A DNA stretch of 17,143 nucleotides from Octopus sinensis (Eukaryota), in the NCBI RefSeq assembly GCF_006345805.1, contig NW_021825503.1, forward strand, positions 1 to 17,143, written 5' to 3'. The notes below the pieces were generated by a model. The model saw nothing but the letters and a program-made list of their open reading frames with translations, did not search any database and was not told the origin of the DNA. Both the position numbers and the translations under genes were made by a program. Shown here piece after piece: positions 4,960-17,078 of this stretch; the first letter of the stretch is position 1; each line of letters starts with the position of its first letter.

Positions 4960-5005
<46 letters not shown>
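4920..5005. repeat. (CA)n-(TA)n compound microsatellite
   Basis: Directly visible. Confidence 0.95.
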
Positions 5006-5006
<1 letters not shown>

Positions 5007-5192
5007 TTGAAATTTACAGAAGAACAAAAGATGAAGATAGATGTATAAACAGCAAGCAGGTGTATTAGTTTGACGCTCGGGAAAGTGAGAAAGTCTTTTA
5101 CGTTTCGAGCCTACGCTCTTCAACGGAAAGGAACGCGAGGAAATAAACAAAGAGAGAATAAAAAAAGAAACTCGTGGATTTAGCGATCAATC
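5004..5192 (-). mobile_element. Hammerhead-motif-containing dispersed element, copy 1 (Penelope-like terminal repeat / retrozyme-like)
   Basis: Homologous to 15581-15772. A 30-nt block (5092-5121) is identical between the copies. Both end in a (TA)n tract. Confidence 0.65.
5095..5130 (-). ncRNA. Minimal type I hammerhead-ribozyme-like motif (variant core)
   Basis: Minus strand reads CUUU-CCGUUGA-A-GAGC(GUAG)GCUC-GAA-ACGU-A-AAAG. Stem I is CUUU/AAAG, stem II is GAGC/GCUC, helix III is palindromic ACGU, putative cleavage after GUA. Core differs from CUGANGA at two positions. Confidence 0.5.
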
Positions 5193-5194
5193 AT

Positions 5195-5398
5195 GTTTGT
5201 GCGTCTGTGTTTGTCCCCACTTCACCATCGCCTGACGACCGATGTTGGTGTGTCCACGTCCCGTAAAATAGTGGTTCGACGAAGGAGACCGATAGAATAA
5301 GTACTAGGTTTACAAAGAGTGAGTCCTGGGGTCGATTTGTTCGGCTAAAGGCGATGCTCCAGCATGGCCGCAGCCATGTGACTGAAACATGTAAAAGA
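5195..5398 (+). mobile_element. SINE family B 3' half
   Basis: gtctgtgtttgtcccc...gagaccgatagaataagtactagg...ccagcatggccgcag...gactgaaacatgtaaaaga. Confidence 0.85.
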
Positions 5399-5582
5399 AT
5401 CTTTTCTGAAATATGGTGGGAATTGAACTGGGAACGAACATGCAGGTAGCTAAGCATGGTACGGTATTTCGTTCGACCTTTGACCGCTGCTGGCAATATA
5501 CTCTGGAGAGCAGAGAACAATATCTGCGTTTAATAAAATATAACTATTATTGGGAATAGAATTAAAAGAAGCAAAGTTAAAG

Positions 5583-7442: not shown

Positions 7443-7676
7443 CACTATATGCAAGCACATCGGTGAAACAGTTTATTTGCTGAGAGAGAGAGTAGATTTG
7501 TTTTTCTTCAGTCGGTTTCGTAGGAAACCCCGGCTCTTTGTTGGGGGGCTGTCTTTAAGGCAGGCCACTTTGTTGCACGTATTCGAGCCTGGTCTCCTAC
7601 ACGTTTCTGGGGTCCTGTTGAAAGTCATAAGCAGCGTACTTCCCCCTCTGTTATAGTAATAGAAACATATCTATCT

Positions 7677-8130
7677 ATTCTTTTCTACTCTAGGCACAAA
7701 GCCCGAAATTTTGGGGAACGGAGCCAGTCGATTAGATCGACCCCAGTACGCAACTGGTACTTAATTTATTGATCCCGAAATGATGAAAGGCAAAGTCGAC
7801 CGCGGTGGAATTTGAACTCAGGACATAAAGACAGACACAAAATCTATTTCTTTACTACCAACAAGGGGCTAAACACAGAGAGGACAAACAAGGACAGACA
7901 AACGGATTAAGTCGATTATATCGCCCCCAGTGGGTAACTGGTACTTATTTAATCGACCCCGAAAGGATGAAAGGCAAAGTCAACCTCGGCTGAATTCGAA
8001 CTCAGAATGTAACAGCAGACGAAATACCTATTTCTTTACTACCCACAAGGGGCTAAACACAGAGGTGACAAACAAGGACAGGCAAACGGATTAAGTACGC
8101 AACTGCTACCTAATTTATCGACCCCGAAAG
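7677..8130 (-). mobile_element. SINE family A, trimeric composite (5'-truncated)
   Basis: Tail Y (tattcttttctactctaggcac) at 7677. Tail X (tatttctttactac.cacaaggggctaaacac) at ~7845 and ~8029. Repeated cgaccccgaaaggatgaaaggcaaagtc cores. Confidence 0.88.
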
Positions 8131-8233
8131 GCATCTTGGGTACCTTCAGTCACACACACACACACACACGCACGCACATACACACACACATCCACACAAA
8201 CACATACATATGTATGCGCATGATATACATGTC

Positions 8234-8602
8234 TGGTAAGAAGCTTGTTTCTCAACCACATGGTTCCGGGTTCAGTCCCACTGCATTGCACCTTGGGCAT
8301 GTGTCTTCTGCTATACCCACGGGCCGACCAAAGTCTTATGAGTGGATTTGGTAGACGGAAACTGATAGAAGCCCGTCGTATATATATATGTGTGTCTGTC
8401 TGTCTGTCTGTGCTTGTCTTCTCCACCATCGCTTGACAACCGATGTTGGTGTATTTTCGTCCACATAACTTAGCGGTTCGGCAAAAGAGACCGATAGGAT
8501 AATTACCTGGCTTACAAAGAATAAGTCCTGGGTTCAAGTTGTTCGACTAAAGGCGGTGCTCCAGCATGGCCGCAGTTAAATGACTGAAATAAGTAAAAGA
8601 AT
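8234..8602 (+). mobile_element. SINE family B, near full-length copy
   Basis: tggtaagaagcttg...ggttccgggttcagtcccactgc...caccttgggc...ccagcatggccgcag...gactgaaataagtaaaaga. Confidence 0.88.
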
Positions 8603-8722
8603 ATATATATACACGACAGGCTTCTTTCAATTTCCGTCTATCAAATTGGCTTCGCAGAGTGAGATTGAACCTGAAACCACATGGTAGCAAAGCAAGCTTT
8701 TTATCCACCATTCCACACCAGC
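8603..8722 (-). mobile_element. SINE family B 5' fragment with internal deletion, inverted relative to the adjacent copy
   Basis: Reverse complement: tggataaaaagcttgctttgctaccatgtggtttcaggttcaatctcac...tgatagacggaaattgaaagaagcctgtcgtg. Confidence 0.7.
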
Positions 8723-10094: not shown

Positions 10095-10145
10095 GTATAT
10101 TCCTTTTAGTTTGCTCGTGTAGACAAATCGTACTAATTTAACTAT

Positions 10146-10472
10146 ATGGTTCTGGGTTCAGTCCCACTGCGTGGCACCTTGGGCAAGTGTCTTCTACTAT
10201 AGCCTCGGGCCGACTAAAGCCTTGTGAGTGGATTTGGTAGACGGAAACTGAAAAGAAGCCCGTCGTAAAAATGTCTGTATATAAGTATGTGTTTTTGTGT
10301 TTGTACTCCCAACATCGCTTGGCAACCGATGCTGGTGTGTTTACGTCCCCGTTACTCAGTGGTTCGGCAAAAGTACTAGGCTTACAAAGAATAAGTCCTG
10401 GGGCCGATTTGCTCGGCTAAAGGCGGTACTCCAGCATGGCTGCAGTCTAATGATTGAATCAAGTAAAAGAGT
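10146..10472 (+). mobile_element. SINE family B copy (small internal deletion)
   Basis: atggttctgggttcagtcccactgcgtggcaccttgggcaagtgtcttctactatagcctcgggccgac...ccagcatggctgcagtc...aagtaaaagagta. Confidence 0.88.
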
Positions 10473-10545
10473 AGATGTCAAAGCATCAATCCCTAAATAC
10501 ATCCATACTCACTCAAACGTAGCAATGTACGTTTTTATGTTATAA

Positions 10546-10945
10546 TTATTTCTAGTCTGGGCACAAGTTCTTGAAAATTTTAGGGGAAGAGGGCTAGTCG
10601 ATACATCGATCCCAGTGCGTAGATGGTACTTATTTCATTGACCCCGAAAGGATGAAAGGCAAGGTTGACCTCGGCGAAATTTGAACTCAGAACGTAGCGG
10701 CAAACAAAATGCCTATTTCTTTACTACCCACAAGGGGATAAACACAGAGGGGACAAACAAGGACGGACAAACGGATTAAGTCGATTATATCGACTCCGGT
10801 GCGTAACTGGTACTTATTTAATCGACCCCGAAAGCATGAAAGGCAAAGTCGACCCTGGCGGAATTTGAACTCAGAACGTAAGGGCAGACGAAATACCGCT
10901 AAGCATTTCGCCCGGCGTGCTAACGATTCTGCCAGTTCACCGCCC
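10546..10945 (-). mobile_element. SINE family A, dimeric composite copy
   Basis: Head (reverse complement of ctgccagttcaccgccct) at ~10945. Two cores, tail X at ~10714 and tail Y at ~10546. Confidence 0.88.
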
Positions 10946-11023
10946 TCATTTTTGAGTTATAATGAAAACAATTTTCCGTTAATTATTTTACATTAAACTG
11001 AATGATTACTCTACATGAATATG

Positions 11024-15296: not shown

Positions 15297-15580
15297 ATTT
15301 ATGTATTTCTATTATTAGCATGGTATTCTTTGAGTGAGGTGTGGCCGTTTCTGTTCGTTTCTGTATCTTCTCAAAGGTAAAAATACCGTGTACGATGAAA
15401 TAACAGCTGAAGCGAGATTTAGCACGAATAAAAAAAAAAAAATAAATAAATGAATAAACAACATCATATCAGTAACGGGTGGAGGAGGTCGCTAATTAGA
15501 TGCAACGATGCCACATGACAACCTGACGAAGAGAAATAATAATAACAATAATTCTTTCATATATATATATATATATATAT

Positions 15581-15772
15581 ATAGGGAGAGTTCACGAAAA
15601 AAACAAAGGACGAAGACAGGTGGTGTATAAAACAAACAGATGTAATTAGTATAACGCTCAGGAATAGAAACAGTCTTTTACGTTTCGAGCCTACGCTCTT
15701 CTGCAGAAAGGGACACAGAAAAAAACAAGGAAAGAAAAAAATGTGCGTAGTGGCTACCGATCTGTCATGGCG
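15581..15772 (-). mobile_element. Hammerhead-motif-containing dispersed element, copy 2 (may extend to ~15860)
   Basis: Colinear homology with 5004-5192: aacaaa.ga.gaaga.ag, tgtataaa.ca, attagt.t.acgctc.ggaa, agtcttttacgtttcgagcctacgctcttc, gaaagg.ac. Abuts a (TA)n tract. Confidence 0.65.
15675..15710 (-). ncRNA. Minimal type I hammerhead-ribozyme-like motif (variant core)
   Basis: Minus strand reads CUUU-CUGCAGA-A-GAGC(GUAG)GCUC-GAA-ACGU-A-AAAG. One mismatch to CUGANGA (A6 to C). Palindromic ACGU helix III. Confidence 0.55.
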
Positions 15773-15869
15773 ACTGCCGGTCAGAAGGGTCACACAGGAG
15801 AGCGAAGAAATAGGAGAGATAACACAAAGTAAAGATGATCCCCAAAACGAAGGTGCGTGTGTGTATAGT

Positions 15870-16081
15870 ACACAAAATGTCGAAATATCGTTCTTTAGAT
15901 AACAATGGCACTCTCCTTTTAATTTTGACTCTATATCTTCAGGAGGAGTAACCTCAATCCCTTATATATTAACCAAAATGAAGTAGATTGACAAATTTAT
16001 TTTTTGAATCAGTTGAAGACACACAAGATGTCGAAATATCGTTCACTAGATAACAATGGCACTCTTCTTTTAATTTTGACT
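15870..16081 (+). repeat. 61-bp direct repeat pair (15870-15930 and 16021-16081; offset 151)
   Basis: acacaa.atgtcgaaatatcgttc..tagataacaatggcactct.cttttaattttgact is present twice. Confidence 0.9.
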
Positions 16082-16097
16082 TTAATAATAATAATAA

Positions 16098-16415: not shown

Positions 16416-16481
16416 GCTTGGTTACCTTTAATGTGTGGAGTTACTATTTCCGTAAAGCGGTAGAAATATTACTATTATTAT

Positions 16482-16695
16482 TAAGGCGGCGAGCTGGAAG
16501 AAACGTTACCACGCCGGGTGAAATACTTAGCGGTATTTCGTCTGCGTTACATTCTGAGTTCAAATTCCGCCGAGGTCGACTTTGCCTTTCATCCTTTCGA
16601 GGTCGCGATATAATCGACTTAATCCCTTTGTCTGTCATTGTTTGTCCCCTCCATGTTTAGCCCCTTGTGGGAAAAAAAAAAAAGAAATAAGAAAC
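16482..16695 (+). mobile_element. SINE family A copy with internal deletion, ending in tail X
   Basis: taaggcggcgagctgg head; ttctgagttcaaattccgccgaggtcgactttgcctttcatcctttcgaggtcg; joined to gatataatcgacttaatcc...gccccttgtggg. The ccagt hairpin segment is missing. Confidence 0.88.
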
Positions 16696-16928: not shown

Positions 16929-17078
16929 GAGAGTCATTCTCTTTTAGTGCCTTATTAATACAACACACTCACCGGTCTGATTTCTACTCATTTACTTATT
17001 TATTTAATTAAGCAAATGAGTGGAAATCAGACCGGTGGGTGTGTTAAATTAATAAGGCACTAAAAGAGAATGACTCTC
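16929..17078. repeat. Long inverted repeat / palindrome: 70-bp arms, 10-bp AT spacer
   Basis: 16929-16998 versus the reverse complement of 17009-17078 gives 65/70 identical by hand alignment. Confidence 0.92.

Follow-up and report, generated by a model that had tools for sequence, protein, structure and literature searches.

A lineage-wide change at core position 6 of a hammerhead-derived motif in the terminal repeats of an Octopus sinensis Penelope-like element

The window, here the whole stretch of DNA that was analysed (17,143 nt of Octopus sinensis contig NW_021825503.1), carries on its minus strand at 15584..15866 the 5′-truncated 3′ end of an autonomous Penelope-like retrotransposon (PLE). 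Within this copy, referred to below as the window copy, lies a minimal type I hammerhead-derived motif (15675..15710, minus strand) whose core position 6 is A in canonical hammerheads, U in the lineage and a private C in the window copy. Judged by sequence comparison, the lineage-wide A6U change is a real anomaly, and it stands beside a lineage with U4C and beside canonical families. The chance that the U6 motif acts in the parent element as a slowed self-cleaving ribozyme is put at about even, and the lone window copy is likely inactive as a ribozyme.

The motif was delimited from the sequence, from pair counts across families and from the consensus in Fig. S3 of PMC4209133; the minus-strand letters at 15710-15675 agree one for one with those given by the sequence-only reading. 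In 5′ to 3′ order on that strand, it consists of the 5′ strand of a 4-bp stem I (15710-15707), the core C3-A9 (15706-15700) with position 6 at 15703, an extra A before stem II (15699), stem II of 4 bp with a 4-nt loop (15698-15687), G12-A14 (GAA, 15686-15684), a palindromic ACGU (15683-15680), H17, which is A (15679), and the 3′ strand of stem I (15678-15675); the motif register places the predicted cut between 15679 and 15678. Compared with the consensus core C3 U4 G5 A6 N7 G8 A9, position 6 was the sole departure. The unpaired nucleotide between 9 and 10.1, the G10.1-C11.1 pair and the palindromic 15.2-16.2 of the consensus are matched by the window copy, and G12, A13, A14, A15.1-U16.1 and H17 all match the PLE consensus, with agreement in 26-28 of 29 copies per position. 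The extra A, which had been taken as unusual, turned out to be part of the PLE hammerhead consensus (PMC4209133).

The motif exceeded chance: a relaxed descriptor matched the window once, whereas 300 dinucleotide shuffles gave no match, and pattern searches of the genome gave thousands of matches against 0 for reversed controls. Rfam returned no hammerhead on 15600-15800, where five weak, unrelated rows were reported, and for the whole window the 150 matches listed out of 233 likewise contained no hammerhead. A core register shifted three bases later was rejected; with it, position 4 would vary among subfamilies and the second pair of stem II would be mismatched. In predicted folding, stem II was stable in the isolated motif and weak in the context of the window copy (0.05-0.2). 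C6 makes the core region at 15698-15709 (minus strand) contain a perfect 10-nt palindrome, and a dimer of the window copy is predicted to pair through the core, not through ACGU. Further downstream, 19-27 nt past H17, an element of pyrimidines followed by GAGCG (15655..15664, minus strand) was kept across clustered motifs, being present in 138/166 motifs of the six clusters with at least five members. It is partly complementary to the 3′ strand of stem II and to GAA, and the predicted probability of this alternative pairing ranged from 0 to 0.8 by copy; by pairing with the 3′ strand of stem II, the element could act as an off-switch.

Alignment to longer relatives identified the window copy as the last 283 nt of a 3′ pseudo-LTR/UTR, a length that follows from its being alignable to long copies from 15866 to the TA tract. 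Identity to three such copies (L031, L032 and L033) was ~89-90% over ~310 columns with the TA tract counted in, and all three extend upstream beyond the homology with the window copy into EN/RT coding sequence. The (TA)n tract itself (15559..15583, found with TRF and assigned to neither strand) lies at the 3′ end of the element and is its likely insertion target. TATA was located within 10 nt of the element end in 26/29 related copies, which bears out the earlier proposal that the family lands at (TA)n tracts. Since tblastn with the element protein against the window yielded no match, no coding part is taken to be present there. The window copy is without an ORF and without a tandem partner and has one further core change, from U6 to C; lacking both and having a poor predicted fold, it is likely inert whether the motif of its lineage is slowed, dead or compensated. 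It is an ordinary transposon fragment, the tail of a very common Penelope-type element. A 64-nt local duplication (92%; window 15870-15933 and 16021-16084) adjoins its truncated 5′ end.

A second, older and shorter 3′-end fragment, belonging to a related subfamily and accompanied by a TA tract, was found by blastn at 4995..5163 (minus strand); it is 76% identical to the window copy over 172 columns, and the two sort into different 3′-flank clusters. The second copy with U at position 6 that had been announced is thus present, with U6 visible in its motif at 5130-5095, but that motif also carries a further change, U4C, and it is because of the C at core position 4 that the relaxed descriptor skips it. 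Other repeats in the window include a near-perfect palindrome of 150 nt (16929-17078, 91% self-complementary, MITE- or hairpin-like) and two abundant dispersed families distinct from the hammerhead element, each with several copies, one at 4-880, 7676-8096, 10541-10950 and 16480-16688, the other at 1356-1724, 2327-2504, 5194-5400, 8230-8614 and 10139-10476. One of these two families has a 184-nt tandem unit.

The parent element was characterized by searches of the genome (2.72 Gb). A nucleotide search returned 4,046 first-look candidates, 40 of which were scored (89-95% identity), and across 30 loci the 3′ end was fixed while the 5′ end varied from ~0 to >1,400 nt beyond the query. Among five long copies followed further outward, L032 encodes a PLE reverse transcriptase (RT) with a DKG motif and L031 an endonuclease C-terminus. 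A 342-codon open frame also occurs at L031:1952-2977 (plus strand), ~4.5 kb from a PLE copy, and appears to resemble a monocarboxylate/MFS transporter exon. Searching with the L032 protein fragment gave 5,361 candidates; 150 were scored, and 20 elements with long open frames were taken, selected by protein match and ORF length. The motif lay 3′ of the ORF in 19/20 of these selected elements and also 5′ of the ORF in 8 of those 19, and core position 6 was U in 26 and C in one of the resulting 27 motifs. Direct terminal repeats (pLTRs) of ~630-1,390 nt were present in 8/8 two-motif elements, with best segments 90-99% identical. Placement of the motif in both repeats gives the parent architecture as pLTR-ORF-pLTR, with the motif inside each repeat and the 5′ motif >1,400 nt ahead of the conserved part of the ORF.

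Long single ORFs with a PLE-type RT were seen in L066-L085. Pfam RVT_1 scored above cut-off in 3/3 ORFs and Pfam GIY-YIG, at E 0.0078 and below cut-off, in 1/3; residues of a GIY-YIG endonuclease with a CCHH motif were visible at the C-terminus in L066, L067, L069 and L070, and a C-x4-C-x2-C linker preceded EN in L066 and L281. The closest Atlas clusters scored 0.98, the first of them having GIY-YIG on 52%. Pfam matched none of five short ORF fragments, and a PDB sequence search with the element ORF gave 0 matches. Same-sense ORF sequence was found upstream of 31/208 fetched motifs within the upstream DNA covered, one of these being a spurious singleton, and antisense ORF matches were found for 2 of the 208. 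The ORFs of the window family and of the youngest family were ~80-83% identical. Kinship with Penelope minimal hammerheads, proposed from the window alone, is therefore supported by parent elements that encode RT and GIY-YIG and carry the motif in their pLTRs, and copies attached to such ORFs were found with homology continuous into the ORF.

The same data bear on what the window copy is a copy of. The sequence-only reading had offered either a family of short, protein-less retroelements or solo Penelope terminal repeats. The latter came close, but 5′ truncation explains the window copy best; the former did not survive, the copies being variably 5′-truncated ends of an autonomous RT/GIY-YIG element. 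That a non-autonomous retrozyme or SINE-like family of ~190 nt moves as its own unit is accordingly highly improbable: most copies are indeed short with no ORF nearby, and tandem retrozymes are traced back to PLE repeats in a preprint (bioRxiv 2026.07.22.740005), but the copies have no fixed 5′ end and their homology runs on into the ORF. The tandem arrangement that had been suggested for checking was likewise scarce among the fetched loci, where two motifs lay on the same strand within 1 kb of each other in 10/191 locus-strands, and the number of motifs never exceeded three. For the window copy, the short-element reading is already largely refuted.

Position 6 was examined in alignments made without any motif pattern, in which the 29 nearest copies had U in 27, C in one and an unaligned position in one. 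The window copy has 8 private differences in 220 nt, and its C6 is among them. Exact-pattern counts over the genome, which require a 4-nt loop on an identical stem II and covered A, C and U, were 20,714 for U6, 650 for C6 and 413 for A6, with 0 for each reversed control. C6 as a subfamily of its own was rejected, the nearest neighbour by flanks being another C6 copy for only 2/22 C6 copies. The natural core-variant family that had been envisaged thus exists, but its variant is U6, and the C6 of the window copy is a private change. When 210 motifs were clustered by 3′ flank, four clusters were mainly U6 and two A6, with 44 singletons; the samples were partly drawn by pattern, and these proportions do not stand for frequencies in the genome. 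With a 3-nt loop, the scaffold had 5,361 matches, with canonical A6 in 95 of 100 listed, and families with other stem II sequences are present in the genome.

Following the protein fragment linked to A6 led to 20 more elements, in 9 of which a motif combining A6 with C4 lay immediately before the ORF. The U4C pattern had 8,649 matches in the genome, with A6 in 95 of 100 listed, and the lineage (L281-L297, for example L293:1025-1110) is a young sister PLE with long open ORFs, the youngest branch of which has a U-U mismatch in stem I and C at H17. At L281, a repeat of the U6 lineage lies ~270 nt upstream of the 5′ repeat of the U4C element on the same strand, an arrangement that suggests insertion beside a related element; mixed U6/U4C dimers are conceivable there. 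In an ORF tree of 25 stretches (midpoint root; 17 near-identical young U6 rows left out), 10 U6 rows were split from 9 A6 rows by a 100/100 branch, and 6 rows carried no motif label. U6 was constant over branches of up to ~0.2 changes per site, along which N7 was A, C, G or U and H17 was A or U, and the end branches of young U6 copies with open long ORFs were mostly <0.01. U6 is called derived because A6 is general elsewhere, the tree itself being midpoint-rooted only. The U6 core is covered, without differences, by contigs of organisms A and D, which shows presence only.

Conservation was assessed between two ORF-defined lineages (67% amino-acid identity), in which the motif was identical at 26/36 positions; the 5′ flank gave 46/129 and fourfold-degenerate ORF sites 113/281, and the corresponding figure for the 3′ flank, 38/165, is depressed by overhangs. 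Among what was kept are the catalytic G8 and G12, the C3-G8 pair, both stems and the palindrome. Excess conservation of the motif across copies, on which the ribozyme proposal had been staked, was thus found, and the catalytic guanines and the stems are conserved beyond neutral expectation. Between the two ORF-linked lineages, the outer pair of stem I is swapped, C-G standing against G-C. In 12 hand-picked family rows, 92% of cells pair and 5/8 pairs have double-sided changes; the shuffle control for this test ignores relatedness, and one slid control also reached 5 pairs, with 5-7 cells against 10. Stem II is invariant inside the U6 lineage, neither stem covaries there, and covariation comes from comparison between families only, with the largest stem II changes contributed by L141, L155 and L164, which are putative PLE families. 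When left free in the pattern, G12-A13 was intact in 96 of 100 listed U6 matches. H17 was A, U or C among subfamilies, and the lone G17 among 166 clustered motifs belonged to one old copy.

On the slowed-ribozyme reading, a read-through transcript would carry two repeats whose ACGU palindromes pair into helix III, probably aided by the protein of the element, and a slow cut after GUH would process the precursor. Reverse transcription would start downstream of the cut site and have to cross it, as is implied by the genomic copies, which end 95 nt 3′ of H17. On a template read across the cut site, fast cutting would not be needed and may be costly, and such a relaxed need would let changes in the CUGA turn (U6, and U4C in the sister lineage) spread. 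In favour of slowing, both changes sit in the CUGA turn; mutants of this turn are poor cleavers in vitro and were low in activity in a full mutational scan (PMC9901934), and A6C and U4C reduce activity without abolishing it (PMC3088659). No activity value for A6U itself was found in the literature searched, the supplement of PMC9901934 being outside its scope. Reading through the cut site, however, is equally expected if the cut RNA is religated into a circle and so is no proof of an uncut template, the U-U mismatch in stem I of the youngest U4C family fits catalytic decay equally, and the covariation is of the between-family kind described above, part of it in L141, L155 and L164.

The same PLE remnant could instead carry a motif that no longer cleaves in the lineage and is kept for protein binding or positioning or as a DNA signal, which we regard as rather unlikely, if with an appreciable chance. 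Two lineages of thousands of copies each with a different change in the CUGA turn would be accounted for in this way, as would the stem I mismatch; cleavage is dispensable for insertion in vitro (PMC11167929), and Naiad PLEs thrive without hammerheads (bioRxiv 2021.04.23.441226). A dead motif is harder to reconcile with the positions that do vary, which are those free in an active hammerhead (N7 with all four bases; H17 with A, U and C), with the intact G12-A13 in nearly all listed matches, or with the nature of both observed changes, each of a type after which some activity is known to persist. Somewhat less likely still is full compensation of U6, by which the motif would cleave like canonical PLE hammerheads in a dimer or protein context or with another metal ion. 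U6 is held across several subfamilies, no large reverted subfamily with a 4-nt loop was seen at the A6 and U6 counts given above, and A6C keeps good activity in Mn2+ (PMC7151607), but rare reversion needs no selection for U6, and in a full pairwise scan the CUGA turn was rescued only by a C3-G8 swap (PMC9901934; a type III ribozyme, not a PLE dimer).

A stronger form of the slowed-ribozyme reading, which is offered tentatively and is on balance unlikely, holds that the two most successful of the sampled Penelope lineages independently detuned the CUGA turn (A6U in >20,000 copies, U4C in >8,000) since a slow, protein- or metal-gated ribozyme favours transposition. If this were true, A6U would be a functional natural hammerhead core new to the literature searched, and the genome would be a natural experiment on the purpose of PLE ribozymes. 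Canonical, A6U and U4C cores sit on nearly the same scaffold in this one genome, in lineages that are closely related and have recently amplified, and the series can be used to measure the amount of catalysis that a mobile PLE requires. Descriptor searches that demand CUGA miss tens of thousands of PLE motifs. PLE hammerheads, the extra nucleotide, the palindrome and truncated single copies are already known. Many PLE-linked hammerhead variants are reportedly described by Lunse et al. 2017. Neither an A6U hammerhead family nor an octopus PLE hammerhead was found in the literature searched, a provisional result in that Lunse et al. 2017 and Arkhipova et al. 2017 may list position-6 variants; the extracts of PMC6155905, PMC7229834, PMC6962438 and bioRxiv 2026.07.22.740005 mention no A6U hammerhead family. 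What the hammerhead does in EN+ Penelope elements is described as unclear (bioRxiv 2021.04.23.441226).

Among known systems, the metazoan PLE minimal hammerheads (PMC4209133) share with the octopus motif the type I layout in both pLTRs, a short stem I, the unpaired nucleotide between 9 and 10.1, G10.1-C11.1, a palindromic 15.2-16.2 without helix III and occurrence mostly as single truncated copies; such hammerheads depend on dimerization, and their cleavage is weak (PMC4209133; review PMC6765202). The stem II of the Acropora Neptune row in Fig. S3 of PMC4209133 is near-identical to that of the window motif. A6 is present in 56/56 rows of that figure, but the descriptor required A6, and no row is from a cephalopod; the core variant published there is U3-A8, in contrast to U6 or C4 here. 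Neptune/Nematis-type EN+ PLEs (bioRxiv 2021.04.23.441226 = PMC8557442) have the DKG RT, the CX2-5CXXC linker, GIY-YIG with CCHH, pLTRs and microsatellite targets in common with the octopus element, a likeness by description only, whereas the hammerhead core is non-canonical in the two largest lineages sampled here. The natural A6C hammerhead of phage Bcep176 (PMC3088659, PMC7151607) also has a pyrimidine at position 6, the same base as the window copy. It is a single phage ribozyme that cleaves slowly, at <0.1 per minute (PMC3088659), and favours Mn2+ (PMC7151607), whereas here C6 is private and U6 is inherited in >20,000 dimer-type copies; U4C, for its part, lowers activity yet supports viroid infectivity (PMC3088659). 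In the Anolis Poseidon element PAc (PMC11167929), a hammerhead likewise lies in a PLE repeat and genomic copies end downstream of it. Its motif overlaps the start of the ORF, cleavage was shown to require protein, and its mutants remain capable of insertion in vitro; in the octopus element, the predicted motif lies well before the conserved ORF. Non-LTR retrozymes (PMC7229834; bioRxiv 2026.07.22.740005) resemble the octopus copies in being short, repeated animal sequences with a type I hammerhead and a relation to PLE repeats, but they form tandem units of ~170-400 nt, usually with canonical hammerheads, whereas the copies here are scattered, are truncated to varying extents and run on into an ORF.
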